A stretch of DNA of 64,000 nucleotides, taken from positions 37,821-101,820 of the forward strand of contig JBGALV010000003.1 in the NCBI GenBank assembly GCA_044223515.1, written 5' to 3'. Every line of letters begins with the position of its first letter. Within the stretch, counting starts at the first letter, position 1. The notes beneath the pieces were generated by a model. It ran no database searches. It saw only the letters and a list, made by a program, of their open reading frames with translations, and was not told the DNA's origin. Below are positions 4,525 through 64,000 of the stretch, one piece after another. Origin of the DNA: Alphaproteobacteria bacterium (GTDB taxonomy: Bacteria; Pseudomonadota; Alphaproteobacteria; SHVZ01). Position numbers and translations under genes: made by a program.

Positions 4525-5727
4525 GTGAGCCCTCCCGGCACTCCTTTGCCGCGCCTCGGCATCCGCTGGACCTTCACCAGCTTCACGGGATGGGGCGTGT
4601 TCGGTCTCAATCTGGCTCGCGATCTCACGCGTCGCGGCCTGGCCACCCCGGTGCCGCTCTACACCGAGGATCTTTTGACCGACGAGGCGAGGAGTGACCC
4701 CGTGCTCGCGCCGGCGCTGGCAGCGCAGCACGAGGTCGCGCCGCGCCTGGCGACGGGCGGCCGGCTTCACCTCGATTTCCCGGTTCTGCACGGGCTCGGA
4801 AACGGCCTCGGCGCCGGTCAGCTCAGCAGCCAGGTCTTCGGCACGCCGGACATCGGCATGGTCTTTCTCGAAGATACGCGTCCCGGCGACGCCGTGACCC
4901 AGGCGGCTCGCTATCGCCTCCTGCTCGCCGGGTCCACGTGGAACGGCGACGTGCTGCGCGGTTTCGGCATTTCGCATGTCGCCGTCTGCCCGCAGGGTGT
5001 CGACACGGCCCTGTTCCGGCCGCAGCCGCGCCGTGGCGTCTTCGGCGACCGCTTCACGATCTTCTCGGGCGGCAAGCTCGAGTTCAGAAAGGGGCAGGAC
5101 ATCGTCATCGCCGCCTTCCGCATGTTCCGTGCGCGGCATCCCGACGCCCTGCTGCTCACCGCCTGGTCCTCGCCCTTTCCCGGTGCCGCCGACGATCTGG
5201 CGCAGTCGCCTCACCGCACGGGAGCGCCTGTAGCCGCCGACGATCCGGAGTCGGTGTCCCGCTGGCTGGCTCAGAACGGCATCCCGCTGGACAGCATGGC
5301 GCTGTTGCCGGCGATCTCGAACGAGGCCATGGCCTCGTGGCTCGGCGATGTCGACGCCGCCGTCTTCGTCAGCCGCGCGGAGGGTGGCACCAATCTCGCG
5401 GCAATGGAGGCGCTTGCCTGCGGGGTGCCGACCATCCTTTCCGCCAACACCGGGCACCGCGACCTGATCGCCTCGGTTCCGTGCGTCGCGCTCGACCGTC
5501 AGTCGGCCATATCGGCCGGCCCCACGGCTGCCGGAACGGCCGGTTGGGGCGAGACCGACCCGATGGACGTGGTCGAGGCGCTGGAGCAGCTTTACGCGCG
5601 GCGCGAGGAGGCGAGGGCGATGGGGCGGGAAGCGGCGGCGGCCATGGCGTCGACTTGGTCCTGGCCCCGGCGCATCGATGGGATGCTTTCCGCTCTGGCC
5701 GAAACCGGCGCCTGGCCGCACGCATGA
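4525..5727 (+). CDS. GT4-family glycosyltransferase
   Basis: GGKLEFRKGQD and SRAEGGTNLAAMEALACG (EX7E) motifs. Start placed at GTG 4525; the ORF is open from 4420. Confidence 0.85.
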   Translation: MSPPGTPLPRLGIRWTFTSFTGWGVFGLNLARDLTRRGLATPVPLYTEDLLTDEARSDPVLAPALAAQHEVAPRLATGGRLHLDFPVLHGLGNGLGAGQLSSQVFGTPDIGMVFLEDTRPGDAVTQAARYRLLLAGSTWNGDVLRGFGISHVAVCPQGVDTALFRPQPRRGVFGDRFTIFSGGKLEFRKGQDIVIAAFRMFRARHPDALLLTAWSSPFPGAADDLAQSPHRTGAPVAADDPESVSRWLAQNGIPLDSMALLPAISNEAMASWLGDVDAAVFVSRAEGGTNLAAMEALACGVPTILSANTGHRDLIASVPCVALDRQSAISAGPTAAGTAGWGETDPMDVVEALEQLYARREEARAMGREAAAAMASTWSWPRRIDGMLSALAETGAWPHA

Positions 5728-7949
5728 CCGAGGACGAGGGCTCGACGATTGCCCGTCTCTATGGCGAAGCGCTTGCCCGCGCCGACGCCGGTGACCTCGT
5801 CAATGCTCGCGGAAATCTCCGGCGTACGGTGGCCTTCCGTCCGTCCATGCCCGAACTCGCTATCGCCCTCGGAACGGTTGCGCTTCGTGCGAACGACCCG
5901 GCGGGGGCGCTTTGCCACTTCTCGCGTTCCCTCGCGCTCGATCCGCTCGGCGCTCACGGACTCTACAATCATGCTCTGACCCTCGACCGCTTCGACGTCG
6001 TACGCGCAGCAAGGGGGTTTCGCCAAGCGCTCGTCCGGGCCCCGGACCTCGCCGCCGCTCAAGCCGGCCTCGGCCGTACGGCGCTCCGGTCGGAGAAGCC
6101 TCTGGACGCGATGGTCCACCTGCGGCGGGCGATCTCGTCCACGCCGAGCGACCCCGACCTTCATGTAGATCTCGGCCACGCGCTTCGTGCGGCTGGACGG
6201 CACCCGTCTGCAATCGCCAGCTATCGAGAGGCCGTACGCCTCGCGCCCAATGCCGCCGAACCCCTGGTCAATCTCGCCGGGGGGCTGGCTCAGACCGGAC
6301 GCATGGCGGAAGCGGAGGCGAAATGCCGCAAGGCACTGGCTCTCATGCCGGCCGCGAGCGTCGCCTTCCACAACCTCGCCGAAGCGACGACCGGCGCCCT
6401 CCAGAGCACGGCCCTGATCCGCGCCCTGGCGATAGAACCGGACTTCGCGGCGGCTCATCTCAATCTCGGCGTCCTCCGTCATGCTCAGGACCGGCTCGAG
6501 GAGGCCCGTCTCCACTATCGCGCCGCGATCGCTCTCGCGCCCGAGACGGCGAGGGCCCACCACAACGCCGGCGCCCTGCTGATGCAGCGGGGCGAGACGG
6601 GCAGGGCGGTCCCGCTGTTCCGACGTGCAGTGGCGCTCGACCCGAGCAGCCCGACGCTGACGAGCGATCTTCTTTTCTGCCTCTGCTTCATCGAGAAGCC
6701 CGATCTCGATGCGATCTTCCTGGAGCATCGTCGGTTCGCCTCTCGCTTCGTCCACGACCCGACCGTCGGGTCCGCCTTCAGGAACAATCGCGATCCCGCT
6801 CGCGTCCTTCGCATCGGCTATGTTTCTTCGAACCTGCATCGTCATCCCGTCGGCCACGCGCTGCTCGGACTTTTCGAGCATCAGGATCGCAAGCAGATCG
6901 AGATCACAGCCTATGCGGGGCCTGCGCCGATGGACGAGATGGCCCGGCGCCTGCGGGCGGCGACCGACCGCTGGATCGATACGGGCGGAATGGCGGACGA
7001 CGAGCTCGCGGCGCGGGTGCGCCGGGACGGAATCGACATCCTCGTCGATTGCATCGGCCACCTGCCGCAGGGGCGGCTGCTCGCCTTCGGGCAGCGGGCG
7101 GCACCGATCCAGATCGGCTTCCCGGTCTATCCCAACACGACCGGACTTTCGGAGATGGACTACCGGATCGCCGACGCCGAGATCGCACCGGCCATCGCCG
7201 ACCGCCACCACACCGAGCGCCTGATCAGGCTTCCGGACGTCTATGCCTGCCATCACCCGGCCGACGACTCGGTGGCGCCGGCATCGGGCCCGCCTTTCGA
7301 CCGAACCGGCGTCTTCACCTTCGCCTCGTTCAACAACCCGGCGAAGCTTGGAGACGCGGTCCTGACCGCCTGGGCCGAGATCCTGCGGCGCACGCCGAAG
7401 GCGCGCCTCCTTCTCAAATGGCGTGTCCTCGACCGGACGTCAGCTCCCGTTGCCGGGTTGCAGCGTCTAGGAATCGCGCCGGAGCGGATCGTCGTTTCAG
7501 GCTGGTCGGCGAGCGCCTATGCGCCTTACCTCGACGTCGACTGCTGCCTCGACCCCTTCGTCAACGGGGGCAACACCACCTATGACGCCCTCTGGATGGG
7601 CGTGCCGGTCCTCAGCCTACGGGGCCCCCATCTCTTCGCGCGAGTCGGATCCAGCCTGCTTCGGCAGGTAGGCTTGAGCGAGCTGGTCGTCGACAGCGTC
7701 GACGCCTATATCGATACAGCCGTGGCCCTCGCGGGAGACGAGGAAAGACTGCGTCGGGTCCGCCATGGGCTCCGGGAGCGCGTGGCAGCGTCCGCCCTGG
7801 CCGACGGACCACGCTATGCGGCACATGTCGACACGGCCTATCGGGCGGTCTGGCGGCGCTGGTGCGACGGTCTGGCGCCGGCGGCGCTGACGCTGGGACG
7901 GGATGGGGGGATTGCCTGGTCGGCAGAGACGGCCACCGCCGTCTCTTGA
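5724..7949 (+). CDS. TPR + GT41 (OGT/SPINDLY-like) protein glycosyltransferase
   Basis: ATGA-coupled start at 5724; multiple TPRs; RIGYVSSNLHRHPV, FASFNNPAKL, DALWMGVPV. Confidence 0.9.
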   Translation: MTEDEGSTIARLYGEALARADAGDLVNARGNLRRTVAFRPSMPELAIALGTVALRANDPAGALCHFSRSLALDPLGAHGLYNHALTLDRFDVVRAARGFRQALVRAPDLAAAQAGLGRTALRSEKPLDAMVHLRRAISSTPSDPDLHVDLGHALRAAGRHPSAIASYREAVRLAPNAAEPLVNLAGGLAQTGRMAEAEAKCRKALALMPAASVAFHNLAEATTGALQSTALIRALAIEPDFAAAHLNLGVLRHAQDRLEEARLHYRAAIALAPETARAHHNAGALLMQRGETGRAVPLFRRAVALDPSSPTLTSDLLFCLCFIEKPDLDAIFLEHRRFASRFVHDPTVGSAFRNNRDPARVLRIGYVSSNLHRHPVGHALLGLFEHQDRKQIEITAYAGPAPMDEMARRLRAATDRWIDTGGMADDELAARVRRDGIDILVDCIGHLPQGRLLAFGQRAAPIQIGFPVYPNTTGLSEMDYRIADAEIAPAIADRHHTERLIRLPDVYACHHPADDSVAPASGPPFDRTGVFTFASFNNPAKLGDAVLTAWAEILRRTPKARLLLKWRVLDRTSAPVAGLQRLGIAPERIVVSGWSASAYAPYLDVDCCLDPFVNGGNTTYDALWMGVPVLSLRGPHLFARVGSSLLRQVGLSELVVDSVDAYIDTAVALAGDEERLRRVRHGLRERVAASALADGPRYAAHVDTAYRAVWRRWCDGLAPAALTLGRDGGIAWSAETATAVS

Positions 7950-8049
7950 ATACCAGCCCCGGCGCTTTGATGTATCATCGTCGCTGCCCAACATCGCCGC
8001 CTGACGCATGCAAGGCAGCCCCGGTCGGATGACCGGCGTGGCCCCATAA

Positions 8050-9881: not shown

Positions 9882-10651
9882 GCGTCCGTAGGCGCCTGAT
9901 CCCGAGCCTTCTCCTCCGGCGTGGACGACTGGTAAAGGGCGTCCGCTATGCAGCGCATCGCGATGCCGGGCATCCGGTCGGCACCGCGCGCGCGCACAAC
10001 GCCCAAGGCGCCGACGAACTGGCGCTGGTCGACATCGACGCGGCGCGGGAGGGACGGGCGCCCGACCTCGATACGCTTCGCGCGGTCGCCGCGGTCACGT
10101 TCGTGCCCCTCACCTTCGGAGGCGGCATCGTTGATACCGACACCGCCCGCGCCTGCATCGCCGGCGGCGCCGACAAGGTCATGGTCACCGCGGCCACCCT
10201 CGACCGGCCGGCGCTGATCGACGACCTTGCCCACGTCCTCGGTGTCCAGGCGGTCGTGCTCGGTCTCGACATCCTGCGTGACGACGCCGGCCACTACCGG
10301 CTCTATGACCACCGGCGCCAAGTCGCGGTCGCCGATCGCGACTGGAAGTCCTGGGTGAAGGAGGCCGCGGCGCGAGGCATCGGCGAGATACGCGTGATGG
10401 CAGTCGACCGCGAAGGCACGCGCGCAGGCCTGGATCTCGCGCTTCACGCGGAGATGTCGGAGCTGACGCGTGTTCCTATCATCCTCGAAGGCGGCGCCGG
10501 AACGCTCAAGCATCTCGACGAGGCGTTCGCCGCTGACGTGATGGCCGTCGGGCTCGGCACCATGCTGGTTTTCTCCGACAACAACATCTTCAAGCTCAAG
10601 CAATTCCTCGGTGTCCGCGGCCATCAGGTCAGGCGCCTGGAAAGTGCGTGA
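9878..10651 (+). CDS. hisF: HisF-like cyclase/ammonia-channel subunit (WbuZ-like)
   Basis: RLIPSLL...LVKG, GADEL, PLTFGGGI, GADKV, DREGT. Confidence 0.88.
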   Translation: MSVRRRLIPSLLLRRGRLVKGVRYAAHRDAGHPVGTARAHNAQGADELALVDIDAAREGRAPDLDTLRAVAAVTFVPLTFGGGIVDTDTARACIAGGADKVMVTAATLDRPALIDDLAHVLGVQAVVLGLDILRDDAGHYRLYDHRRQVAVADRDWKSWVKEAAARGIGEIRVMAVDREGTRAGLDLALHAEMSELTRVPIILEGGAGTLKHLDEAFAADVMAVGLGTMLVFSDNNIFKLKQFLGVRGHQVRRLESA

Positions 10652-10655
10652 CGGC

Positions 10656-11195
10656 ATGCGGCTCGACCATCCCATCGATACGCCGCGGCTGACCCTCCGA
10701 TCCCTGGACGAGACGGCGGCAAACGGCGCCTATCTCTCCTGGATGGAGGACCCGGATGTGTTGCGCTATCTCGAGGCCCGCCACGGCAGGCACGATGCGC
10801 ATTCGATCGCCGCCTTCATCCGCTCGGCCAACGAGAGCCGCGACTCCCTGCTGCTCGGCATGTTCGTGCGCGCGGCAGGTCGTCACATCGGGAACATCAA
10901 GCTGGGGCCTATCGACTGGCCGAACCGCCGCGGCGAGATCGGGATCATGATCGGCGACCGGACCTCCTGGGGTCTCGGCTATGCACGCGAGGCGATCGGT
11001 GCACTGGCCGACCATGCGTTCACCGGTCTGGGTCTGCACAAGCTGACTGCCGGGTACATAGAGGCGAACGCCGCATCCGGTAGGGCTTTCGCGGCAGCCG
11101 GCTTCACGGTCGAAGCTCGATACGCCAAGCACTTTCTGGCGGACGGTGCCTGGGCCGACGGAATGCGGGTCGCGCGCTTCGCCCCCGGCAGCTAG
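10656..11195 (+). CDS. GNAT (RimJ/PseH-like) N-acetyltransferase
   Basis: YLSWMEDPDV, HIGNIKLGPI, IMIGDR..WGLGYA, N.AS motifs. Confidence 0.82.
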   Translation: MRLDHPIDTPRLTLRSLDETAANGAYLSWMEDPDVLRYLEARHGRHDAHSIAAFIRSANESRDSLLLGMFVRAAGRHIGNIKLGPIDWPNRRGEIGIMIGDRTSWGLGYAREAIGALADHAFTGLGLHKLTAGYIEANAASGRAFAAAGFTVEARYAKHFLADGAWADGMRVARFAPGS

Positions 11196-13081
11196 CGCGC
11201 GATCGCGGCTACCGCCGCACCAAGGTGTCGAGACAGGGTCGTCAGGAAGGCGCCTCGGCTGAAGCGTCGTCTCGCTTCGTCCGCGATCGTTTCCGCCTGC
11301 AGCCGACGCTCGTGGTCCGGCAGGCGATGAACCGCTTCGATCGCCTCCTCGATCTCCTCGGGGCTGGACGAGGAGAGCACAGTCCCGCAGCCCGGCGGCA
11401 GATCGATGCCACACTCGGTGGAAAGGACCGGAAAAAGGCCCGCCTGCATGCAGGTGATGGCAGAGGTCGACTGGCCCTCGCTTGCGGATGGAGCGAGGAA
11501 TCCCACGCAAGACGAGGCAAGAGCCTCGAAGTCGAAGGAGATGGGCGACATCACTCCGTGGACAAAGATGTTTCCTGACGTGGCGATCCTCCTCCCGTAG
11601 CCTGCGGCGAACCACGGCTCCTCGGCAGCCGGTCCGACGATCTCCAGGCGCCAGTCCGGGTGCCCAAGGAAGACCTCGACCACCCGATCGAGGCCTTTCA
11701 GCACTGCACCGTGACCAGAGAACCAGAGCCAGCGGCGCGGATCGCCGTCAAGTCTTTGGCCGCCGCGTTCACGAAGTGTCGCGCCCGATGGAGACAGGAG
11801 CCGGATCTTCTCCCGTACCGCAGGTTCGTAGGTCGCGCGGGTCACCGCATTGCCGAAAAGCCAGCACTCATCGGCCAGGCGTAAGGAAGCCAGTTCGCCT
11901 GAGACGTCGTCGAGGCTTCGCACGGGCGGCGCAACCAAGCCGGTACGCTGCGTGAGCTCCCGGCGGCGCAGCGCCTCCTGGGCGTTCTGGAAATCCGGGC
12001 TGCTGCCTGTCAGCAGCATGATCCTCCGGCACCCGGCGCGAAGTCGCGCCGCGTGGCGTGCCAGCCCGTTGTGCAGGCAGAAGACACCGTCATAGCTTTC
12101 AGGGCTGGGCCACGCATCGAAAAGGCCGGCCAAGTCGACCACGAAGCCAAGCTCCAGCAACATGCGCGCGATCGCGCGGCTTTCCCATTGGTTGCTGTGC
12201 CGGCGGAACCGCTCATCGGCTTCGGGAAGAAGCACGCCGCCAGCGTTGTATCCGAACAAGAACCGCCCTGCCGGCGGCCGATCGAGCGGCGTCAGCCGAA
12301 GCGCCTTGCCGATGCGCCCGACGCCGATGGCACCGATGCCAGGAACGACGAGCCGGGGCGGCGGATCGTCGGTGAGAATGTGGATCGTGGACGCATATGC
12401 CGCACGGCTGCCGACGCTTGCCGGATTCATTGCGAGGTCGACATGGAAAAGAGCTGCCGCGTCCTCGAGCCGGCCGGCTGCAATGAGCGCAAGCCCCCGG
12501 CCAAAGTGATCGGCGGTTGATGAGGGTTTCAATCCAACCGATCGGGCAATGCTTTCCAGCGACTTCAGAAGCAGTCTCGCGTGATCGAGCAATTCCGGCC
12601 GACCGTCGAGAAGGCTACGCAGACGTTGAGCGACGGCACCGCTTTGGCCGACCTCCATGCGCAGAGCGGCATGCTGCAGTTCATGCGGCAGGCTTCCAGT
12701 AATGGCGCAAATCCGGCCGAGATCGACAAGGCCGTCGAACCTGGGGCCCTGTCGATGCAGTTCCCAGCCCTGAGGCAACTGCGGCGACAAGGCTAGCCCG
12801 CGTCGCAAGACCCTGTCCGCGTCGGCGCGGCGAGCGAGACCGGCCAGCAGGGCCGCAAAATTGAACAGCGCCCCGCTGTCGAGAGCAACCCAGGTTGCCC
12901 GGCGCATCGGCGCCAGCGCCTCGGTGCCGTCGCCGCCGTTCACGAGGGCCACTCCATGCAACTGAAGCCCCGCTCCGTCCGCAGGCGATACTGCGATCAA
13001 CGCGCGAGAAAGTGTCGCCGCCCGCGCGTGCAGGCCGGATCGCAGAGCTTCTTCGATCTCTGCCATTCGCTCGGCTCGCAC
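11192..13081 (-). CDS. Degenerate-TPR + GT4-like glycosyltransferase
   Basis: N-terminal TPR-like helices; C-terminal GAVLKGLD and PSASEG...AGLFPV; C-terminal half is paralogous to 43894-45051. Confidence 0.78.
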   Translation of the reverse strand: MRAERMAEIEEALRSGLHARAATLSRALIAVSPADGAGLQLHGVALVNGGDGTEALAPMRRATWVALDSGALFNFAALLAGLARRADADRVLRRGLALSPQLPQGWELHRQGPRFDGLVDLGRICAITGSLPHELQHAALRMEVGQSGAVAQRLRSLLDGRPELLDHARLLLKSLESIARSVGLKPSSTADHFGRGLALIAAGRLEDAAALFHVDLAMNPASVGSRAAYASTIHILTDDPPPRLVVPGIGAIGVGRIGKALRLTPLDRPPAGRFLFGYNAGGVLLPEADERFRRHSNQWESRAIARMLLELGFVVDLAGLFDAWPSPESYDGVFCLHNGLARHAARLRAGCRRIMLLTGSSPDFQNAQEALRRRELTQRTGLVAPPVRSLDDVSGELASLRLADECWLFGNAVTRATYEPAVREKIRLLSPSGATLRERGGQRLDGDPRRWLWFSGHGAVLKGLDRVVEVFLGHPDWRLEIVGPAAEEPWFAAGYGRRIATSGNIFVHGVMSPISFDFEALASSCVGFLAPSASEGQSTSAITCMQAGLFPVLSTECGIDLPPGCGTVLSSSSPEEIEEAIEAVHRLPDHERRLQAETIADEARRRFSRGAFLTTLSRHLGAAVAAIAR

Positions 13082-13086
13082 GGCGG

Positions 13087-16256: not shown

Positions 16257-16280
16257 TTGACGTCCGACATCGCGGCCGGA

Positions 16281-16991: not shown

Positions 16992-17009
16992 CGTACGTCT
17001 CCCGTCCGT

Positions 17010-25725: not shown

Positions 25726-25785
25726 CGGTGCTGGAGTGCCGCGTGCATCGTCGCCGGCTCCGCTTCGTTCAGCGTAACCCCGACT

Positions 25786-28446: not shown

Positions 28447-28529
28447 GATCGACTCGACCTTTGCGACGCTTCACACGGCACGACCGGCGCCCGTCAGGGC
28501 GCATTTCGCTCGGGGGCCGTGGGGTAATA

Positions 28530-33702: not shown

Positions 33703-33808
33703 GAGGGAATGTCAGTGAATGCGGCTGCACACTAACAGCGGGTTTAGCGCGCGGCCAAGGACGGCGACTGCGGCTGCGACCCTTATCCTCACGATCCTTT
33801 CTATGACG

Positions 33809-34241: not shown

Positions 34242-34375
34242 GATCGGCTATATCGCGTCCGGGAGCGGCCTTGACAGCGCAGGCGATTGAATGTCCAAGA
34301 CGTTCCGCGCAAGGACATTCGAGCCGCCGGCCCCGTTCGGGGCGTTCCGGCCCTATCGCCCAAGGAGCAGCCGTC

Positions 34376-37970: not shown

Positions 37971-38042
37971 GGGGTCCTTCTTACCCGATACGGGCATTTC
38001 CGTCATTTGGGGATGGGCGCAGGCCAGGGCCAGGGGTGAATG

Positions 38043-40498: not shown

Positions 40499-40508
40499 GA
40501 TCTCGATC

Positions 40509-43072: not shown

Positions 43073-43076
43073 GACG

Positions 43077-43841: not shown

Positions 43842-43893
43842 CGGAACGGGTGAGATTTAGCAGCCCTGTATCGGCGGTGGAAGCAGCCCGCCG

Positions 43894-45051: not shown

Positions 45052-45152
45052 AGCGGGTCCGAAGGGTTGGGAGGGTCTCCAGTGTGCCAAGCGGCGGCGT
45101 CCCGGAACAAGCATCCAAAGAAAGGGCACCGGAAATGCGATATTATCGCGCC

Positions 45153-45941: not shown

Positions 45942-45951
45942 GCGCGGCCTG

Positions 45952-54149: not shown

Positions 54150-54155
54150 TGTGAG

Positions 54156-55514: not shown

Positions 55515-55596
55515 GGCTCGTGCGATGTCGGCGTCGATGGCTGAAGTCCTGGTGAAACAAGTCCGGACGGAAGCGTACCTCCGGCCGTAGGGCTGC

Positions 55597-55626
55597 AAAA
55601 GAAAAGGGCCCCTTTCGGGGCCCTTT
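55597..55626 (-). terminator. Rho-independent terminator of the S-layer-like gene
   Basis: Minus strand reads AAAGGGCCCC-GAAA-GGGGCCCTTT-TCTTTT, about 25 nt after the stop. Confidence 0.9.
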
Positions 55627-55650: not shown

Positions 55651-57012
55651 TTAGTCGCTGAAGACCGCGCCCATGTTGGTGACAACGCCCGCCGGGTTGA
55701 GCAGCAGGCCGGTCAGCTTCACGCTGCTCGAACCGAACAGGAAGGTGACCTGAGCGCGGGACGACGCATCACCCAGGAAGGTGCTGCCGACCGCGGTGTT
55801 GATATCCGACGCGCCGTACAGAGCCGAGGAGCCAGCAGCGAGGCTGCTGAGCGACCCGACCGCGGTCGCGCCGTCCGAACGGCGGACGCTGACCAGGGTG
55901 GTCGATGCCGTCGTGCCGCTGTTCACCGCGTAGGCGAACGAGCTGTAGCCGCCCGTCACACCGACGAAGTAGTTCGACGTACGCACCGTGCCGCTGTAAC
56001 CGACGGCGTTGGAGGTCGTCGTGCCGGTGATCGTGCCGTTGTTGCTCGTCGTGATGACGCCGCGGACCGTGATCGAGCTGTTGCTCAGCACGCTCGAGCC
56101 GTTGGCGATCGCGCAGACCTGGAAGGTCGAAACGCTGAGGCCAGTGAGCGTCGCCGAGGTCGAGCCGGGGGTCACGGTGAACGCACCCGACGGGGCCGCA
56201 GTGGCGCAGGTCGTGGCAACAGCAGTGGCGATCGCGTAGACGGTCGAGATGCCCGACAGCGAGCCGCTGACGGTGATCGAGCCGCCCTGAGCGCTCATCG
56301 AGACGGCGCTGCCGCCGCTGACGTCGTTCGGAGCGGTGCCCGCGTTGGCGAACGCGACCGTGCCGAGCGGGGCGAACAGAGCCGTGCCCGTGCCCGAGAC
56401 GAAGCGATTGCCGCCCGAGGCGACGTCGATGGTCTGAGCCGCACCGGCAGCCTGGGTCGCAGTGGCGGCGTCGGTGATGTTCGCGACAACCGTCCCGCCC
56501 GCGGTGGCCTGCTGAGTGACAGGGTCAGCCGAGAGAGTGGCCGTGATGTTGAACGAGGTCGCCGTCGAGTTCGTCGAGATGTAGGTCTGCAGGCCCGAAA
56601 CCTGGATGCCCGTCAGCGAGATATTGGTCGAGCCGGAGCTCGCAGTGGTCACCTGGTAGACAGTCGAGGAAGCGCCCGAGCCGCCCGTCGACAGGGTCAA
56701 CGCGAGGTTGACACCGGCCGAGAATCCGACAGTCGGGTTGGCGGCGAAGGTCATGCCCGAGGGCAGGGCGAAGGTGACGAAGTTACCGGTCGTGAGCGTG
56801 CCGGCCGTCGTGATCAGCCGAACCGTGGTGCCGCTCAGGGTGGCGTTGCCGGTCGAAGTCAGCTGACGAGCGAAGGTATTGTCCGCCGTGACGACAATGC
56901 TCGCGGCGGAAGCAGGCGACATGACACCCAGGAACGACATGGTCGTCATGACGGTTCCCAGACCCGTCGTCGCCAGCAGCAGCCTCTTGCGAGAGCTCTG
57001 AGTCTCAAACAT
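55651..57012 (-). CDS. Ser/Thr/Ala/Gly-rich secreted surface protein, S-layer-like
   Basis: About 36-aa signal peptide ending ASA; mature part about 30% Ser+Thr (hand count of the first 200 aa), no Glu/His/Trp, one Cys pair; strong codon bias; own promoter and terminator. Confidence 0.8.
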   Translation of the reverse strand: MFETQSSRKRLLLATTGLGTVMTTMSFLGVMSPASAASIVVTADNTFARQLTSTGNATLSGTTVRLITTAGTLTTGNFVTFALPSGMTFAANPTVGFSAGVNLALTLSTGGSGASSTVYQVTTASSGSTNISLTGIQVSGLQTYISTNSTATSFNITATLSADPVTQQATAGGTVVANITDAATATQAAGAAQTIDVASGGNRFVSGTGTALFAPLGTVAFANAGTAPNDVSGGSAVSMSAQGGSITVSGSLSGISTVYAIATAVATTCATAAPSGAFTVTPGSTSATLTGLSVSTFQVCAIANGSSVLSNSSITVRGVITTSNNGTITGTTTSNAVGYSGTVRTSNYFVGVTGGYSSFAYAVNSGTTASTTLVSVRRSDGATAVGSLSSLAAGSSALYGASDINTAVGSTFLGDASSRAQVTFLFGSSSVKLTGLLLNPAGVVTNMGAVFSD

Positions 57013-57076: not shown

Positions 57077-57106
57077 TTTATACGGCTGGCTTTTGGCCGT
57101 TGTCAA
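57077..57106 (-). promoter_or_regulatory. Near-consensus sigma70 promoter for the S-layer-like gene
   Basis: Minus strand TTGACA (57106-57101), 18-nt spacer, TATAAA (57082-57077). Confidence 0.75.
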
Positions 57107-57401: not shown

Positions 57402-59189
57402 TCAGGTGGGGTGTGTGCGGCAGGCAACAGGCCGTTCCGCGGGTCGCGACTCCAGGATTTCCGCGGGTGCGGCGGAGACGTCCTTAAGAACAGACGCCCA
57501 ATCCCCGGGACTCGGTTGGCGGAGCAGCCGGTGGGTAGGGTACCAGGGAGAGTCGATGCGTCCGAGAAGCCAGCGGAAGTCCGGAATATGGTTGAGGAGG
57601 ACGAGGCCCGGGCGCCCAAGTCCGCCTGCCAAGTGAAGGGCTGACGTATCCACGCCGACCACGACGGAGATATCTTCGAAGACTCGCGCGGTATCCAGGA
57701 AGTCCTTGTTGCCGACAAGACAGGGAATAAGGTCGTCGAGCTCGCCTGCCCGCGGCCCGAATTGGAGACTGACGACCTCGCCGATACCCGCGTCCATCAG
57801 CTGATGCACCAGGGTCCGGGCGTTCTCAGGCGAGATGGACCGGGCCCGGTCGCGCGGATGCACGGCGTTTCCGCCCCAGACGACTCCGATCACTGGGCGC
57901 TCCGGGCGGTGGAAGGCCGGCTTGCTTGTCGGCAGGTAGGGCACGTCTCGCGGAATTGTCGCGAGCGTTGTCTGGAAGATGCGAGGCAGCGACATCAGCG
58001 GCGCGTGCCGGTCGAATGCCGGCAGGACGTCGCCTTGGACGCAGACCTCCTCGATGGAGGGCATGAGCGCCAGCAGGCGGCGGAGCGGCCGCTGGCACTC
58101 GAGGATCACGCGCGCTCCGCGCGCGGCCACCAGCGGCGCGTAGCGGATGAACTGCAGCGTGTCGCCGAGGCCCTGCTCCGCATGAAGAAGGATGCGCCGA
58201 CCGGCCAGATCCTCGCCGGCCCATTCCGGAACCGGCCACTTGCGGGGCGGCGTTGGAAACCGGCGCATGCGCCAGCGTGCTTCGTAGCCGCGCCAGCCTT
58301 CGGAGAAGTTCCCCTCGAGAAGCTGGGCGAGCGCGAGGTTCCAGCGGGCCTCGGCATAGCCGGGCTTCAGGCTGAGCGCGCGTTGGAGATGAATCTTGGC
58401 TACGGAGAGCCGGAGGCGGTCGAAATCGGCAAGGCCGAGGTTGTAGTGCGCTTCGGCGAAGTCCGGTCGCCGCGTCACGGCTTTCCGGAGCCGGGAGGCG
58501 GCCGCATCGGGGCGGTCGTCGGCAAGATCGGCGGCCCCCAAAGCATTGATGACGTCTGGCGAAGCCGTCGACAGGGCTCCCGCCCGCAGCGCGTGGCGGC
58601 GTGCCGCCGCGCCATCGCCGCGGCTCAGCTCGACGAGCGCCAGGTTGAGAGTTGCTTCCGGGAGAACGGGGTCCGCCGCAATCGATTGACGAAAGAAGCG
58701 TCCGGCCATATCGACGCCGTCGAGCTCGACCGCGGCACGACCGAGATCGTTCAGCGTCGCGCTCTCACCGGGCCGCAGGGCATTCGCGGCGGCGAAGACG
58801 GCAAAGGCACCGGCGGCGTCGCCCGCGCTCATGAGGACCCCGCCGAGATTGCGCAGCCAGAGGGGGTCGGGACCGCTGATCGACAGAGCGCGCCGGTAGC
58901 TACCGATGCTTTCCGGCCGAAGACCGCGCGCGGCGAAGGCATTTGCGCGGTGGCCATGGGCGCTGGCGAGCGCTGGTTCGTGGATTAGGGCCTGGCGAAA
59001 CTCGGCCTCTGCCTCATCCGCACGCGACTGATCGGTGAGCACGACGCCGAGAAGATCTCGCGCCGGCGCACCGGCGCCAGAGGCGATCGCCTGCCGATAC
59101 GCGTCGGCCGCCTCGGAAACGCGGCCTTGCCGGTGATGTTCCAGCCCGGCGTCGATCAGCGCCTTGATCGCATGAAGCGCCTGCGTCAT
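57402..59189 (-). CDS. TPR + GT9-like glycosyltransferase
   Basis: EQGLGDTLQFIRY, DTSALHLAGGLG, DFRW...PWYP; ATGA-coupled start. Confidence 0.9.
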   Translation of the reverse strand: MTQALHAIKALIDAGLEHHRQGRVSEAADAYRQAIASGAGAPARDLLGVVLTDQSRADEAEAEFRQALIHEPALASAHGHRANAFAARGLRPESIGSYRRALSISGPDPLWLRNLGGVLMSAGDAAGAFAVFAAANALRPGESATLNDLGRAAVELDGVDMAGRFFRQSIAADPVLPEATLNLALVELSRGDGAAARRHALRAGALSTASPDVINALGAADLADDRPDAAASRLRKAVTRRPDFAEAHYNLGLADFDRLRLSVAKIHLQRALSLKPGYAEARWNLALAQLLEGNFSEGWRGYEARWRMRRFPTPPRKWPVPEWAGEDLAGRRILLHAEQGLGDTLQFIRYAPLVAARGARVILECQRPLRRLLALMPSIEEVCVQGDVLPAFDRHAPLMSLPRIFQTTLATIPRDVPYLPTSKPAFHRPERPVIGVVWGGNAVHPRDRARSISPENARTLVHQLMDAGIGEVVSLQFGPRAGELDDLIPCLVGNKDFLDTARVFEDISVVVGVDTSALHLAGGLGRPGLVLLNHIPDFRWLLGRIDSPWYPTHRLLRQPSPGDWASVLKDVSAAPAEILESRPAERPVACRTHPT

Positions 59190-60955
59190 CGCCGGGATTC
59201 CGGTGCGCAAGCGGCGAGAATGGCGTCCTCCGCCGCACGTATCGGATCTGCGTCGCCGAACAGCCGGTCGAGCCTGCCGACGATCCGGTGTGCTTCGGCC
59301 CGGCGAAAGGGAGCGTCTACCCCGAGGCGAGCCGCGCGCTGGACATAGTCGTCGCGGTTCGATGCGGCCATGTCGTCGAGGCCCATCTTCGTCAGCGCCG
59401 CGAAGGTGTGCCGGCTTCGCATGCTGTCCCCCGGCAGGGTGACGACGGGCACGCCGTTTCCGATCACCTCGATCGTCGAGTTGAAGCCCGACCAGCCGAT
59501 CGAGTCGAGGAGCACGTCGGCATGCCTCGCGATACCCAGAAAGCCGGCCTCGGTCAGCGTCGGCAGCATGAGAATGCGCGAGGCAGGATCGTGGCCTGCG
59601 GCAGCGAATGCCCGTGACAGCCGATCGACGAAGGCTCGCGTGATTGCCGGCATCGGGCCGGAGAAGAAGACGAACCGGCCGCGAGGCACGGCGTCCGCAA
59701 TGCGGACCAACAGCACGTCATCCTGAGGCAGGTACTTATAAAGAGACTGGGCGCAGAGGTAGACGACGTCATCGGCGCCGATGCCGGCGTCCTGCCGTGA
59801 GAGGGGCGCTGGCGAAACCGTACTTGGCGTGTAGAGACATCCAAGGCCGGAAAGCCGTACGAGCCGCTCGACGTAGCGTGCGTCGCCGTCTTCCGGCTCC
59901 ATCAGGTCGCTCGAGAAGAACAGGTCCATGGTCGGATATCCCGACGTGGTCGGGTGACCCCAGGACATCGCCTGCACCGGCGCCAGCTTGAGTGCCGCGA
60001 GCCAGGCGGCGACGGGATCCATGCCGATCTCGGGATAGTAGAGAAAGTCTATCCGGTCGCTTCGGATGCGTTGCGCCAGCGCCATACGGTCGAGCGGCCC
60101 GGCAACGAACCGGTCGAGGCGCGCGGCGGCCGAGGTCGTGATGTCATCGGTGACCGGGCTCGTGTGGTAGCCGAAGACTTCGAAGCGGGATCGATCGAGC
60201 GCTTCGACCCAACCGGCCAACGCCATTTTCCATACGGAGTGACGCCGGAAGTAGCCGGAGGCCAAGCCGATACGCAGGCGCTCCTTGGGATCCCTTTCGC
60301 GTCTCGTCGGGGGGCGAGCCAGATCAGGATGACGTGCCGCCAAGGCTCGGCACAACAACCGCCCATAGCGCGCCTGGAGCTGGCGATCGTCACGCGCCTG
60401 ATAGGCGAGGAAGAAAGGCTGAACCGAGCCGACCGCGTCGGCGAATCGCGCGAGATCCTCGGCGTTCGCGACCTCGGACCATGCCTCGAGCGCGGCGAGG
60501 GCTTTCGAGTAGGCCTCCCTTGCCCGCTCGATCTCCGCTTCGGTTTCGTAGAGGACGGGCAGCTCGGAGACGCAGGCCCCCAGTCGCGCGCGCCCATCCG
60601 ACGGGTTCGTCGCCAAGGCGCGCGCATAGCGCAGGCGCGCCTCGTCCGTCTGGCCGCGTATCCAGGCGGTGTTGGCGAGGCTTTCGCTCGCGGGCGCCAC
60701 GGCGCCTCCTAAAGCAAGAGCGCATCGCAGCCATCGTTCCGCCTCGTCGCTCCGGGACAGGCGTTTCAGGGCGTTCGCGAGATTGACGCGCGCGATCGCG
60801 TCGGACGGCGCAAGGGCAATCTGCCGCGCGAATGAAACGGCGGCTCGCTCGGCGTGCGCGGCGCGGATGGAAGCCGCGCCGAGATCGTGCCAAGCCGAGG
60901 CATCGCTCGGGGTCGAAACGAGAGCACAGCGCGGACGGAGGTCGAAAGCCGTCAT
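59186..60955 (-). CDS. TPR + GT41 glycosyltransferase, distinct subtype
   Basis: SGYFRRHSV, YPEIGMDP, SWGHPTTSG, AQSLYKY, WSGFNST; ATGA-coupled start at 60955. Confidence 0.88.
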   Translation of the reverse strand: MTAFDLRPRCALVSTPSDASAWHDLGAASIRAAHAERAAVSFARQIALAPSDAIARVNLANALKRLSRSDEAERWLRCALALGGAVAPASESLANTAWIRGQTDEARLRYARALATNPSDGRARLGACVSELPVLYETEAEIERAREAYSKALAALEAWSEVANAEDLARFADAVGSVQPFFLAYQARDDRQLQARYGRLLCRALAARHPDLARPPTRRERDPKERLRIGLASGYFRRHSVWKMALAGWVEALDRSRFEVFGYHTSPVTDDITTSAAARLDRFVAGPLDRMALAQRIRSDRIDFLYYPEIGMDPVAAWLAALKLAPVQAMSWGHPTTSGYPTMDLFFSSDLMEPEDGDARYVERLVRLSGLGCLYTPSTVSPAPLSRQDAGIGADDVVYLCAQSLYKYLPQDDVLLVRIADAVPRGRFVFFSGPMPAITRAFVDRLSRAFAAAGHDPASRILMLPTLTEAGFLGIARHADVLLDSIGWSGFNSTIEVIGNGVPVVTLPGDSMRSRHTFAALTKMGLDDMAASNRDDYVQRAARLGVDAPFRRAEAHRIVGRLDRLFGDADPIRAAEDAILAACAPESRR

Positions 60956-62901
60956 GCGTGCGCGAAGGCGCGATGCGCTTCCTCGAAGACGGCTTCTAGC
61001 TCGCGTGCGAGCGGCCGCCCATCCGTCAGGCGGGACGCGGTCAAACGCTGGCGAAGCTCTTGCCGGAGTGCACGGCGCCGTTCGTCGGCAGCCACGAGGA
61101 CGCGCCCATTTTCGAGAAAGCCGGCGTCGTCCTCGGCAACGAGATCGGGGAGACCTGCGGCGGAAAGTATCGACGCACCCATCCGCCCCATCATGCGTCC
61201 GGCCGTCCGGCTCAGGACGGGCACGCCCATCCATAGAGCTTCGAAAGTGGTTGTGCAGCCGTTGAAGGGGACCGGGTCGAGAGCGATGTCGATGTCGCGA
61301 TAGGTATCGAGGTGGGTCTCGCGGCTGTCGACCCGCGTCGAGAAGTCGAGAGCGTCGGCTCTTACGCCGTGTGCGGCGAATTCCCGGCGGATACGGTCCT
61401 GGATGCTCCGGTCGTCGTAAAGATTCTTGTACTTCAAGAGCAGCCGCGCGTCCGGAAAGGCGCGCAGCAGCGGTGCCCAGAGAGCGATCGTAGCGGGCCC
61501 GATCTTGGCCGGGTTGCTGAACGATCCGAACACGATGCGATCGCCGTTCTGGCGCCGGACGTTCGAGAGCTGGCCTTCAGGCATCGTGAAGCAGAAGAGG
61601 CAGGAGACAGCCAGAGGCGGCTCGGAAAGGGCTCCTCGATCCGAGGGCGGGCACAGGAGCGGATCGACGACGATCCCGTCGATCTCGGGCGATCCGCTGC
61701 TCGCGACGTCGAGCAGGGAGAGCTGTACGGGGGCCGGGCGGAACGAGGCGACGCCGAGGCGGTTTCGCGCGGTGTTCCCGGCGAGGATGACCAGCACGTC
61801 GATTCCGTCCGCGCGGATCCGCTGGGCGATCGTCTCATCGTCGTCGCCGGTGACTTCCACCCAGCGATCGGCGGTGCTCGCGAGCCGACCCGTCATATCG
61901 TCGCGTCGGCCGATGTCGGCGTAGCACGTGATCTGGAACTTGCCCCGATCGTGAGCCTCGATCGCGGGCGCGATGTTGTAGGCGACAGGATGCTTCCAGA
62001 AATCGGCCGAAACATAGGCGAGGCGAATCCTGTCCGCACATCCGGAGGACCTCGGTCGCGGGTGGACCGGTCGTTGCTCGGCCTGCCGACGGGCCCGCGC
62101 GTAGCCGAGTTCCTGCGCCGGAGTCGTCCGGTGATCGTAGAGCGAGATCATCAGGCGCGCGCTCCATGAGGCAGGCCTCCGCGGTTCGATGGTCGTCGCG
62201 CGTGCGACGATCACGCTCGCTGCCAGAGGATCGCCCGCGGACGAGGCGATCCTGGCCAAGCGCAACCACAGGCCCGCATCGCCTGGACCGAGAGCGGCAG
62301 CACAATGCAGTTGGTGCCAGGCTCCGCTCGTCTCGCCGAGATCAGCGAGAATCCCGGCCAGGGTGAAGCGAAGGTCGATCGACAGCGGGTTCGCCCGCAC
62401 GGCGGCCTCGAGCAGGCGCGCCGCTTCGCCGGCATGGTCGGCCTCGCCGAGTGCCAGCGCGAGATTGAGGATGGCGCCGCCATCGCCAGGCTGCAGCGCC
62501 AGGGCTCGCCGTCCGTGGCGAACCCGTCGCCCGGCGGTGAAGATCGGCATCGCCGACACGTTCGCGTGGAACGGGAAGACGTCCGGCGCGAGGGCTAGGG
62601 CGCGTCTCATCGCGCGGCGCGCGAGCGGACCGTCGCTGAGGATGGCGAGATTTGCGTGGAGCGCCGCCGCGACTGGGACGATCGCGATCGCGCGCCCGAT
62701 ATGGGTTCTGGCGAGATCCCGCCGGCCTCTCTGCAGTGCGTCCTGGGCGAGCGCCACATGCAGCTCGGCATCCGCGGGCCCGCTCGCCAGGCGGCCAGAA
62801 ATTTCACTCCCGACGGGGCGAGCGCGCGCATCCTCGGGCATGCGGATGGAGGAGGCTGCCACCGATTCAGTTTCGGGCATGGTCATTGCCATAGCCCCCA
62901 A
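60952..62901 (-). CDS. TPR + GT41 glycosyltransferase
   Basis: AYVSADFWKHPV, FGSFSNPAKI, FNGCTTTFEALWMGVPV; start may be 62892 or 62886. Confidence 0.88.
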   Translation of the reverse strand: MGAMAMTMPETESVAASSIRMPEDARARPVGSEISGRLASGPADAELHVALAQDALQRGRRDLARTHIGRAIAIVPVAAALHANLAILSDGPLARRAMRRALALAPDVFPFHANVSAMPIFTAGRRVRHGRRALALQPGDGGAILNLALALGEADHAGEAARLLEAAVRANPLSIDLRFTLAGILADLGETSGAWHQLHCAAALGPGDAGLWLRLARIASSAGDPLAASVIVARATTIEPRRPASWSARLMISLYDHRTTPAQELGYARARRQAEQRPVHPRPRSSGCADRIRLAYVSADFWKHPVAYNIAPAIEAHDRGKFQITCYADIGRRDDMTGRLASTADRWVEVTGDDDETIAQRIRADGIDVLVILAGNTARNRLGVASFRPAPVQLSLLDVASSGSPEIDGIVVDPLLCPPSDRGALSEPPLAVSCLFCFTMPEGQLSNVRRQNGDRIVFGSFSNPAKIGPATIALWAPLLRAFPDARLLLKYKNLYDDRSIQDRIRREFAAHGVRADALDFSTRVDSRETHLDTYRDIDIALDPVPFNGCTTTFEALWMGVPVLSRTAGRMMGRMGASILSAAGLPDLVAEDDAGFLENGRVLVAADERRRALRQELRQRLTASRLTDGRPLARELEAVFEEAHRAFAHA

Positions 62902-63296: not shown

Positions 63297-63326
63297 CGTT
63301 CCCCACCTCCAGGCGATGGGGCGCCG

Positions 63327-64000
63327 GTGCCGTCGGATGAGCGAGGGTTCGATCGATCCCTCGCCGAGGCAGCGGAGCTCCATCGATCGGGGCGTCTCGA
63401 CCAGGCGGAGCAGACCTATCTCCGTCTGCTGAGTGAAGCTCCTTCCCACGACGGGCTCTACGATCTTCTCGGTCTGATCGCACATCAGCGCAACCGCCGC
63501 GACCTCGCCTGCCGGTGGTTGCGGCAGGCGCTGGCTCTCGTTCCCGGTCGCGCCAAGGCCTGGCGCGACCTGGCGCTCCCGGACGAAGGGCGGGCGGGCC
63601 GGTTCGTCGGCCGGGCAGCCTCGATCGAACCCCATGCCGCCGAACATTGGTTCATGCTGGACCGTGCCGTCGGAGCCGAGAACGCCCTCCGCCGCGGCCT
63701 CTCGCTGAAAGCGGATGAAGCCTCAGCCTGGATGCGACTGTCGGTCAGCCTGCTCGCTCGCGGACTCGCCGGCAGAGCCCTGGTCCTGGCGCGACGCGCC
63801 GAAGCGATCCTCGGCAACTCCGCCGGACTCGAAGTAAGGGAGTTGGCAAAGCCGCCCGCCGACGGATGCCGGATCCGGCCGGCGCGGCTGATCCTCGATG
63901 ACGGCGAGCTATCGATCGCTCCCTACTGCGTTTCCATGACGCGCGCAGTCGTCACCGGCGACTTCATGGTCATGCCGACGCCGACTCATGTCCTCGTCGA
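63327..64000 (+). CDS. TPR protein, partial (probably another TPR-glycosyltransferase)
   Basis: Manual translation from GTG 63327: ...LAEAAELHRSGRLDQAEQTY...LLGLIAHQ..., open to the window edge. Confidence 0.7.
   Translation, partial: MPSDERGFDRSLAEAAELHRSGRLDQAEQTYLRLLSEAPSHDGLYDLLGLIAHQRNRRDLACRWLRQALALVPGRAKAWRDLALPDEGRAGRFVGRAASIEPHAAEHWFMLDRAVGAENALRRGLSLKADEASAWMRLSVSLLARGLAGRALVLARRAEAILGNSAGLEVRELAKPPADGCRIRPARLILDDGELSIAPYCVSMTRAVVTGDFMVMPTPTHVLV

Follow-up and report, generated by a model that had tools for sequence, protein, structure and literature searches.

The 64,000-nucleotide stretch of DNA analyzed here (the window; C175:37821-101820) belongs to the 109,866-bp contig C175 of a metagenome-assembled genome of an uncultured alphaproteobacterium from wastewater. 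It encodes a second SecA (SecA2) among a large set of glycosyltransferases (GTs) with tetratricopeptide repeat (TPR) domains, as well as a candidate cargo, a Ser/Thr-rich precursor carrying a signal peptide. The same contig also carries a type II secretion system (T2SS) and a paralog of SecB (SecB2). The preferred interpretation, to which we assign a probability of roughly 0.45, is that C175 represents a plasmid with a self-contained module for producing, glycosylating and secreting one protein via SecB2, SecA2 and the T2SS. A preliminary description of the window had proposed that TPR domains bind the preprotein, GT domains glycosylate it and the extra SecA exports it. Genomic context backs this model in part, and the feature is real and larger than that account: the T2SS, SecB2, two Maf genes, PseB and a second NeuB were missed because they lie outside the window, and the presence of the T2SS and the SecB paralog on the contig changes the model.

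The assembly comprises 185 contigs (5.04 Mb) and is 91% complete. Genes were picked by third-position G+C, the G+C content of the window being 63-70%, and about 55 window open reading frames (ORFs) were scanned against Pfam. Positions given without a contig name are those of the window (Table 1).

SecA2 and its operon

SecA2 is a full-length protein of 886 aa, with Pfam matches to SecA_DEAD, PP_bind, P-loop_SecA, SecA_SW (4.6e-45) and SEC-C. The Walker A and DEVD motifs are visible in its translation and the SEC-C zinc finger is retained. Two SecA_DEAD loci are present in the genome, on C5 and C175. The former is the separate housekeeping secA whose existence the preliminary description had left for confirmation; its product is 49.5% identical to SecA2 over 895 columns. 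A single SecY match, located outside C175, was found in the 91%-complete genome, with no paralogous SecY2 channel. The divergent SecA had been placed near position 4525, where a GT4 gene starts; the paralog itself is present and complete at another position in the window.

The secA2 gene is part of a five-gene operon, in which it is preceded by a gene for a 131-aa DUF6165 protein and followed by three TPR-GT genes. The spacer between the DUF6165 gene and secA2 is 83 nt, and that between secA2 and the first TPR-GT gene, of the GT9-like type, is 60 nt; the three TPR-GT genes are predicted to be translationally coupled. The earlier statement that SecA heads a co-oriented run of TPR-GT genes holds for these three genes only, since DUF6165 precedes SecA2 and the array as a whole occupies both strands. 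The order of the operon is kept in two relatives, G001 (SecA2 94-95% identical) and G002 (80-81%). The DUF6165 ORF is 91% identical in G001 and 76% in G002, and has a 31% paralog on C161. In a protein atlas, DUF6165 shares clusters with GT9 domains, either fused to them or alongside.

Scoring of 7,997 relatives against SecA2 separated nine sequences with identities of 60% or more from all others, which reach 51% at most. In a 40-row tree the nine SecA2-type sequences are monophyletic (SH-aLRT 100, stem 0.87) and stand apart from the housekeeping clade of the genus; one wrong-frame ORF artefact kept in this tree, a family-level relative on a very long branch, leaves the SecA2 clade unaffected. 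The topology indicates that the clade arose within alphaproteobacterial SecAs. In a metagenome scan with SecA2, all of the 80 loci listed are housekeeping SecAs with 49% identity or less. SecA2 exceeds the cut-offs of the canonical SecA models of NCBIfam (NF009538, 994 vs 814; TIGR00963, 882 vs 800) and remains under those of all four curated SecA2 models (TIGR03714, 658/930; TIGR04221, 544/725; TIGR04397, 764/1085; NF012136, 539/1100). By these scores it is placed outside the known SecA2 families, and it is accessory by its position.

Comparison of eight full-length clade members with 38 housekeeping sequences revealed 22 clade-shared replacements at near-invariant positions. The clade members are also alike in lacking 28 residues ahead of the zinc finger and in having a short extension at the C terminus. 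Half of the replacements (11/22) lie within or beside the two strands joining NBD1 to PPXD, bordering the Pfam PP_bind domain: housekeeping TPLIISG is changed to MPIEIMT, and ENQTLASIT to NQGTTVAQT. In the available text of Ma et al. (2019, PMC6599042), the chain in transit joins these connecting strands in a sheet, and S224, F182 and R327 are clamp side chains located near it. S224 probably corresponds to the clade-fixed Met228, if the offset is applied assuming no gaps. The tyrosine of the finger tip (B. subtilis Y743) aligns with Thr789 of SecA2; it is replaced in six of the eight clade members and kept in at least 90% of the housekeeping sequences. SecA2 is also more conserved than its surroundings, at 94% (G001) and 80% (G002) identity, the medians for the plasmid TPR/GT genes being 83.7% and 67.6%. 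When SecA2, the Gsp proteins and the sugar donor enzymes are taken together, the medians are 91.3% and 79.6%, likewise above the TPR/GT genes.

SecA2 and SecB2 might simply provide capacity or autonomy for an abundant cargo and for the T2SS parts, with no specific relation to glycans. The full domain set, the ATPase motifs and the scores above the canonical cut-offs agree with this explanation, as do the apparently abundant transcript of the cargo gene (see below) and the relative G004, which manages without SecA2. It is considered improbable in view of the 0.87 stem, the concentration of the 22 clade-fixed replacements at the clamp, the loss of the fingertip Tyr in 6/8 members, and the operon partners, which are TPR-GT genes and DUF6165, a family linked to GT9 in the atlas.

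The candidate cargo and the secretion genes

The preliminary description pointed to one Ser/Thr-rich exported protein in the window, and this protein is indeed there. In its mature form, the 453-aa precursor would consist of 32% Ser+Thr and 59% Ser/Thr/Ala/Gly, with 4% charged residues; among the 3,883 coding-like ORFs of 200 aa or more in the genome, none besides it exceeds 27.8% Ser+Thr. Both of its Cys residues are conserved without exception in 18 homologs. Pfam assigns it to no family. Nineteen close relatives, none of them named, share 48-94% identity with it, and a profile search extended the family to 74 representative clusters, mostly of ~450-aa signal-peptide proteins with 19-34% Ser+Thr. 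The ten distant members that were looked up are all unnamed or "hypothetical." In several proteins of 620-1,360 aa the C-terminal beta-sandwich domain of the cargo is repeated four times, and these multi-repeat proteins end in a common C-terminal motif.

An AlphaFold model of the cargo (pLDDT 71) comprises three predicted beta-sandwich domains. The first two match Ig-like adhesin or pilin domains with Z scores of ~7-8, rated possibly generic by the tool, while the C-terminal domain resembles TM1070 (Z 11.3) and the Anabaena sensory-rhodopsin transducer (ASRT; Z 10.3). No known S-layer protein is among the listed Foldseek/VIA-align fold matches (Ig-like adhesin/pilin, cohesin, TM1070/ASRT), and the former label "S-layer-like" gains no support from these searches, an absence that does not count as evidence against it. 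The NxS/T sequons are not enriched in the cargo (8 observed vs 6.9 expected), and for this reason O-linkage of the predicted glycans is weakly favored over HMW1C-like N-glycosylation by the GT41 enzymes. A complex prediction for the mature cargo and the TPR-GT9-like protein encoded upstream of it (57402-59189) gave a score of 0.00, which was obtained without controls and has no bearing on binding.

The cargo gene is apparently transcribed on its own. In each of six RNA runs, 22-29% of the sequence words from a surrounding stretch of 5.2 kb are present, and RNA contigs from four metatranscriptome studies cover positions 55635-57061 and essentially nothing else of this stretch. One of them is a single 1,426-nt piece spanning the gene. 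The ends of the contigs differ by a few bases only and show no loose ends, those on the upstream side falling at 57040-57061; this gives a weak hint that the contig edges are transcript ends. A near-consensus sigma-70-type promoter, TTGACA-18 nt-TATAAA, was read by eye just upstream of these ends, and a terminator-like hairpin follows the gene; a promoter scanner applied to 55300-57500 listed no site. Several homologs of the cargo gene in databases sit on contigs of 1.37-1.43 kb, and an abundant monocistronic mRNA would fit this observation. The flanking TPR-GT genes have little or no RNA-contig cover, although such contigs cannot prove silence.

Secretion across the outer membrane could be enabled by the T2SS, whose complete operon (C175:1021-11258) encodes GspE, F, G, H, I, J, K, L and M, a small C/N-like ORF and GspD. 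Its Pfam matches include Secretin, T2SSE and T2SSF, and five ORFs have prepilin-type N-termini; GspL and GspM are assigned by position, as right-sized ORFs with a hydrophobic segment. The plasmid GspD is the only secretin in the genome, and the prepilin peptidase gene is chromosomal (C70). A lipobox-like motif, LAGC, follows the signal segment of the GspD precursor, and this secretin may therefore be a lipoprotein of the "self-piloting" type. HlyD or OEP families were not found in Pfam scans of the contig ORFs.

SecB2 (C175:20777-21265) is followed by two TPR-GT9-like genes. It matches Pfam SecB (1e-27) above the cut-off and scores below the two NCBIfam equivalogs (100 vs 143 and 89 vs 103); the housekeeping SecB is encoded elsewhere in the genome. 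SecB-like paralogs are present in 8 of the 11 genomes of the genus. In all five further loci of the genus that were examined (G004:C49, G006:C8, G007:C38, G009:C8, and G010:C36) the SecB-like gene, with a product 27-34% identical to SecB2, lies inside a TPR-GT41 array, and four of these loci have a NeuB homolog; the fifth has a Maf gene, and SecA2 is found in none. Such a location of SecB-like genes points to acceptors that are exported by Sec rather than by the flagellar apparatus. No Ser/Thr-rich ORF was found within 20 kb in these five loci.

The distribution of these genes was compared among the 12 genomes of the GTDB order. SecA2 is encoded in three of them (G000, G001, and G002), and all three have the cargo (87-100% identity) located between co-oriented TPR-GT genes with the same neighbors, on the same replicon as the T2SS. 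In G004, the fourth genome with a cargo homolog (51% identity), the gene is 525 bp away from gspE, and the same contig carries TPR-GTs, Maf and a large helix-turn-helix (HTH) regulator. The cargo is lacking in the other 8 of 12 genomes, some of them with TPR-GT41 arrays, and no further species representative among 185,579 encodes it. The expected co-occurrence of this SecA clade with the cargo is seen in one direction, all three SecA2 genomes having the cargo, and not in the other, as no SecA2 was found in the 88%-complete G004. In addition, a SecA2-type protein (MBI1778543.1, 60%) and a cargo-type protein (MBI1778505.1, 69%) are both encoded on a 118,505-bp contig, 38 accession numbers apart, and a second such pair is assigned to contigs of 91,627 bp; the two genes are probably together on two further contigs.

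The replicon and its glycosylation genes

C175 appears to be a near-complete circular plasmid of about 110 kb. The replicon-borne character assumed earlier is confirmed by a RepA_C replication initiator, a ParA-type partition ATPase and iteron-like repeats. Circularity is deduced from synteny, because the two end genes of C175 are adjacent in G001 and RepA bridges the G001 contigs C1 and C2; no terminal overlap of 16-200 nt was found between the ends of C175. RepA is 96-99% identical between species, the other plasmid genes there being 65-90% identical. A 642-aa protein with a C-terminal HTH_3 domain (C175:13904-15832, outside the window) is a candidate regulator and one of the most conserved plasmid gene products (96% in G001, 85% in G002, 52% in G004); it accompanies the same system in G004.

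Sixteen window ORFs have Pfam GT domains: 10 are TPR-GT41, one TPR-GT9, two TPR-GT1-type, and three are GT4/GT1 proteins without TPR. Three more TPR proteins are assigned a GT9-like C-terminal domain by paralogy and by the protein atlas (0.96, 21/30 hits), bringing the glycosyltransferase genes of the window to 19. The preliminary count of about 19 enzymes without evident signal peptides is therefore accurate, none of the 19 having an N-terminal hydrophobic segment. The only other likely exported proteins among the scanned window ORFs are the Sel1-repeat protein and the 125-aa ORF listed in Table 1. The replicon as a whole contains 28 TPR-bearing genes: 14 GT41 (a number that rests on GT41 matches and C-terminal paralogy), nine GT9-like, two GT1-type and three unassigned. 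Nine of them lie wholly outside the window, and a tenth begins inside it. The three genes upstream of the cargo gene (57402..62901) are co-oriented with it, as backed by start codon and synteny.

Genes for nonulosonate donors, which the preliminary description also listed, are present in the window: PseI (500 bits vs cut-off 340), WbuX (331 vs 203), a cytidylyltransferase and others. WbuX, the HisH-like and the HisF-like proteins are predicted to be an acetamidino-forming trio. Outside the window, C175 encodes PseB (463 bits vs 408), a PseF-like cytidylyltransferase, a second NeuB and two Maf proteins (Maf_flag10_N + MptE-like; C175:30887-32953 and 33053-35107). The second NeuB match is in a 640-aa frame (C175:25708-27618) that apparently also holds PS_pyruv_trans, and this gene appears to encode a fused synthase/pyruvyl-transferase.

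Table 1. Features of the window, with positions counted from its first nucleotide.
Feature	Position	Strand	Basis and remarks
ParA-type partition ATPase	223..903	-	Pfam AAA_31/CbiA/ParA
Tyrosine recombinase/integrase	2510..4342	+	Pfam Phage_integrase 2.4e-18
GT4 without TPR	4420..5727	+	Pfam Glycos_transf_1, GT4-conflict
TPR-GT41	5728..7949	+	Glyco_transf_41 1.8e-43 and TPR; ORF opens at 4938, start uncertain
WbuX N-acetyl-sugar amidotransferase	8050-9255	+	TIGR03573
HisH-like GATase	9201-9881	+	Pfam GATase
HisF-like	9869-10651	+	His_biosynth 3.3e-47
GNAT acetyltransferase	10611..11195	+	Acetyltransf_3 1.3e-24
Co-oriented run	11192..19058	-	Pfam, paralogy; synteny in G001, G002
TPR-GT1-type	11192-13081	-	Pfam; then orf396
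TPR-GT9-like	14274-16256	-	C-terminal paralogy
Sel1-repeat protein	16281-16991	-	N-terminal hydrophobic segment, by hydrophobicity
TPR-GT41	17010-19058	-	Pfam; in run with the Sel1 protein
TPR-GT41	19169..21004	+	Pfam 7.6e-37
SecA2 operon	20944..28925	-	Pfam; start/stop overlaps; order kept in G001, G002
TPR-GT41	20944-22632	-	Pfam; ATG overlaps upstream stop (4 nt)
TPR-GT9	22629-24173	-	Pfam; 8-nt overlap with preceding stop
TPR-GT9-like	24166-25725	-	C-terminal paralogy; downstream of secA2
SecA2	25786-28446	-	Pfam
DUF6165, 131 aa	28530-28925	-	Pfam; heads the SecA2 operon
GFO/IDH/MocA oxidoreductase, orf214, TPR-GT41	29022..32723	+	Pfam
RepA_C plasmid replication initiator	32728..33702	-	Pfam 3.9e-33; 96-99% identical in G001, G002
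Iteron-like 16-17-nt repeats, candidate oriV	33808..34244	both	Upstream of repA; at least 6 copies
TPR-GT41	34781..36616	+	Pfam 7.4e-37
PseI	36897-38006	-	NCBIfam; begins sugar-donor block 36897..45129
GT1/GT28-like	38043-39998	-	Pfam; ORF coordinates, start likely further downstream
Class-III aminotransferase/GSA-aminomutase-like	39074-40498	-	Pfam
Carbamoyltransferase	40509-42200	-	Pfam
RmlD-like reductase	42197-43072	-	Pfam
Cytidylyltransferase	43077-43841	-	Pfam
GT4	43894-45129	-	Pfam; ends sugar-donor block
TPR-GT41	45790..47685	+	Pfam 2.4e-38
Two TPR proteins, 597 and 540 aa, common C-terminal domain	48008..51201	-	Pfam TPR only; C-terminal similarity
125-aa ORF	51399-51776	+	N-terminal hydrophobic segment, by hydrophobicity
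TPR-GT41	52107..54149	+	Pfam 4.5e-39
TPR + Glyco_trans_1_2	54156..55544	-	Pfam 2.4e-22; directly downstream of cargo gene; ORF opens at 55685, G002 alignment begins at residue 48
Intrinsic-terminator-like hairpin	55603..55626	-	10 pairs (GC), T-run; downstream of cargo gene
Candidate cargo, 453-aa precursor with signal peptide	55651..57012	-	Composition, homologs, fold
Sigma-70-type promoter, near consensus	57077..57106	-	Read by eye
TPR-GT9-like	57402-59189	-	Atlas GT9-like, 0.96; upstream of cargo
TPR-GT41	59186-61234	-	Pfam; upstream of cargo
TPR-GT41	60952-62901	-	Pfam; upstream of cargo
TPR protein, 504 aa	63297..64000	+	Extends past window

Besides the plasmid, the genome contains many enzymes of the same kind. 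It encodes 37 GT41 genes in total, and TPR-GT41 arrays are located on at least 11 contigs (C175, C148, C89, C160, and seven others). The tree of GT41 domains has long branches (median 0.76), and its subfamilies mix members from different contigs, as if every array held one enzyme per donor type. Flagellin genes number about 8-10 in the genome; those on C89 have GT41 genes interspersed, and this contig contributes four rows to the GT41 tree. No Flagellin_N match was found on C175 and no flagellar gene in Pfam scans of its ORFs. The absence from the window of a flippase, Wzy, ABC exporter (Wzm/Wzt), priming transferase, oligosaccharyltransferase and flagellin, as reported earlier, was reproduced among the ~55 scanned ORFs, and no lipid-linked glycan machinery was found in Pfam scans of the plasmid ORFs.

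These enzymes could form a flagellin-glycosylation island, the Ser/Thr-rich protein, SecA2, SecB2 and the T2SS being carried along without any relation to it. FlmG (TPR + GT-B) and Maf are established flagellin O-glycosyltransferases using pseudaminic or legionaminic acid (Pse/Leg), and the flagellin genes of this genome, with the GT41 genes between them on C89, would offer acceptors. Ten window genes have the FlmG-type architecture of an N-terminal TPR and a C-terminal GT-B domain (Pfam GT41), cytoplasmic by sequence, and the genetic link to Pse/Leg biosynthesis is provided by PseI and PseB, both above equivalog cut-offs. Against this, flagellin and flagellar genes are absent from the 110-kb contig, three species have the Ser/Thr-rich gene set among co-oriented TPR-GT genes, SecA2 is translationally coupled, by prediction, to TPR-GT genes, and SecB-like genes occur in the TPR-GT arrays of 5/5 loci, whereas flagellins are exported by the flagellar system and not by Sec. 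The number of TPR enzymes, 28, also contrasts with the single FlmG reported for six Caulobacter flagellins in the available text of PMC7591256. An island of this kind, which leaves SecA2, SecB2, the T2SS and the embedded cargo gene unexplained, is judged unlikely.

Alternatively, the TPR-GT arrays may perform general glycosylation of many acceptors, protein or non-protein, the Ser/Thr-rich protein being an unmodified T2SS substrate encoded nearby. Consistent with this are the arrays on at least 11 contigs, their presence in genus members in which no cargo was found (8/12 genomes of the order lack it), and the lack of Ser/Thr-rich ORFs in the five 20-kb SecB-like/TPR-GT loci. The explanation is nevertheless quite doubtful, since co-oriented TPR-GTs border the cargo gene on either side, an arrangement kept across orthologs with 85-91% identity, since the divergent G004 likewise combines the cargo with TPR/GT genes, Maf and the T2SS, and since no lipid-linked glycan machinery was found in the Pfam scans of the plasmid.

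Proposed pathway and known systems

A dedicated pathway for the Ser/Thr-rich protein would proceed as follows. A strong promoter of its own would yield an abundant monocistronic mRNA for the precursor, whose Ser/Thr residues would be O-glycosylated in the cytoplasm by some of the plasmid enzymes, a set of 28 TPR proteins and two Maf enzymes. The TPR domain would determine which site is modified and the GT domain which sugar is attached, as in FlmG and Maf-1. The donors would include CMP-pseudaminic acid derivatives made by products of plasmid genes. SecB2 may keep the modified chain unfolded and pass it to SecA2 with its SecB-binding zinc finger, and SecA2 would drive it through the single housekeeping SecYEG; the altered clamp strands and finger tip of SecA2 may have adapted it to a chain made bulky by glycans. 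After folding in the periplasm, possibly with a disulfide between the two invariant Cys residues, the protein would be released by the plasmid T2SS, the only secretin system of the genome. Glycosylation, the hand-over from SecB2 to SecA2, the dependence on SecA2 and the identity of the T2SS cargo are all deduced from gene content and context.

Several observations weigh against this pathway. The genome's NeuB-family synthases (two) and Maf genes (two) are all on the plasmid, and the plasmid GT41 domains are interleaved in the tree with those from the flagellin locus, within a set of 37 GT41 genes; given this interleaving, the linkage on C89 and the restriction of NeuB and Maf to the plasmid, flagellin glycosylation may be a further role of the plasmid or take the place of the proposed one. 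SecA2 passes the canonical SecA cut-offs and so could be an ordinary general-purpose motor. It appears dispensable for the core arrangement, because no SecA2 was found in the 88%-complete genome G004, where a cargo homolog, the T2SS, TPR-GTs, Maf and a SecB-like gene are all present. SecB2 seems not to be specifically tied to SecA2 either, SecB-like paralogs being present in 8/11 genus genomes and SecA2 in three. The sequons of the cargo are close to the expected number, the RNA evidence consists of assembled contigs, which are unable to rank expression, and the assignment of the plasmid to its host, in a metagenome-assembled genome, rests on recurrence in three bins of the genus.

In a further-reaching form of this proposal, which we regard as rather speculative, the plasmid would carry the first glycoprotein-dedicated Sec branch in a diderm, leading from a remodeled, independently evolved SecA2 and a private SecB through SecYEG to a private T2SS. 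A heavily O-glycosylated chain would take this route, and each of the 28 fast-evolving TPR enzymes would add a sugar, pseudaminic-acid derivatives included, at its own site on the one abundant beta-sandwich protein, resulting in a variable, plasmid-transferable glycan coat.

The glycosylation enzymes resemble those of the FlmG (Caulobacter/Brevundimonas) and Maf-1 (Shewanella) systems, with which they share the TPR + GT-B architecture (Pfam GT41) and the linkage to PseI, PseB and Maf. In the available texts on FlmG and Maf-1, the TPR domain chooses the acceptor while the GT domain binds the donor, and different enzymes pick different serines on one acceptor (bioRxiv 10.1101/2022.03.25.485807, 10.1101/2023.12.03.569772). 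There the chain is modified before being exported unfolded, and the same order is proposed here. The acceptor of FlmG and Maf-1 is flagellin, exported via the flagellar apparatus, whereas this replicon lacks flagellin and has Sec and T2SS genes alongside; those systems also have one or two TPR enzymes rather than 28.

The accessory Sec (aSec) systems of streptococci and staphylococci comprise SecA2/SecY2, Asp1-3 and GtfA/B, encoded with serine-rich-repeat adhesins that are glycosylated in the cytoplasm and then exported. The plasmid likewise encodes a second SecA beside glycosyltransferases and a Ser-rich surface protein, in the operon and on the same replicon in 3/3 SecA2 genomes, and the glycosylate-then-export logic would be common to both. 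Unlike aSec, it is associated with one SecY and no recognized Asp genes, its SecA2 is full-length with a zinc finger and scores under TIGR03714 (658 vs 930), and its host is a diderm, with a T2SS added for the outer membrane. In place of GtfA/B and a giant repeat adhesin, it encodes TPR-GT41, GT9-like and Maf enzymes and a 453-aa beta-sandwich protein. By this comparison the system would work like the Gram-positive accessory-Sec glycoprotein systems without being a member of them.

SecA2-only systems, such as that for S-layer export in C. difficile, combine an accessory SecA with the housekeeping SecYEG and an abundant surface cargo, as proposed here. A structure of the C. difficile SecA2 is available (PMC7503281), and the mycobacterial SecA2 has the chaperone SatS (PMC6333443; both as given in the available text), of which SecB2 would be a plausible counterpart. 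The plasmid SecA2 differs in missing the curated models, and the links to glycosylation and to the T2SS are new.

Cytoplasmic glycosylation of adhesins before Sec export is performed by HMW1C, a GT41 N-glycosyltransferase acting with HMW1, and by the heptosyltransferases AAH and TibC, acting with AIDA-I and TibA. These enzymes are, as here, GT41 or GT9-related; they work with the housekeeping SecA and with autotransporter or two-partner secretion, and are not known to have an accessory SecA or SecB, a T2SS or TPR acceptor domains. In Aeromonas, the S-layer-specific T2SS homologs spsD/apsE represent a dedicated T2SS for an abundant surface cargo of ~450-500 aa. The resemblance lies in a dedicated T2SS encoded with a single abundant cargo, and we know of no accessory SecA/SecB or TPR-GT arrays in the Aeromonas systems.

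Accessory SecA systems are regarded as a speciality of Gram-positive bacteria and mycobacteria. A literature search for a second or accessory SecA in Gram-negatives found, in the texts available, only Kamneva et al. (2015, PMC4452313), who describe secondary SecA_DEAD proteins near type I secretion-like genes in Planctomycetes, Verrucomicrobia and Proteobacteria and present this as the first account of a SecA duplication in Gram-negatives. As described there, those proteins lack all or most of SecA_SW and sit with HlyD/OEP genes, while the SecA2 of the plasmid has every SecA domain and neighbors TPR-GT, SecB and T2SS genes. The available part of bioRxiv 10.1101/202358 mentions Gram-negatives for the canonical pathway only. 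No paper was found in which a full-length paralog of SecA is combined with TPR-GT genes, SecB and a T2SS.

If the island serves flagellin, the SecA, SecB and T2SS genes among its enzymes stay unexplained. If instead the dedicated pathway is true, glycosylation followed by export through a private SecA would have evolved independently in diderms, a SecB paralog and a dedicated T2SS accompanying it on a single mobile replicon, and TPR-directed O-sialylation of the FlmG and Maf type would extend from flagellins to a Sec/T2SS cargo. The SecA2 clade would then provide a natural experiment on the long-standing question of what in SecA limits the passage of modified or bulky chains, since its changes in the clamp strands and finger tip affect parts that structural work connects with holding the chain. 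The analysis also identifies an apparently highly transcribed, uncharacterized surface-protein family of wastewater bacteria, with 74 representative clusters.

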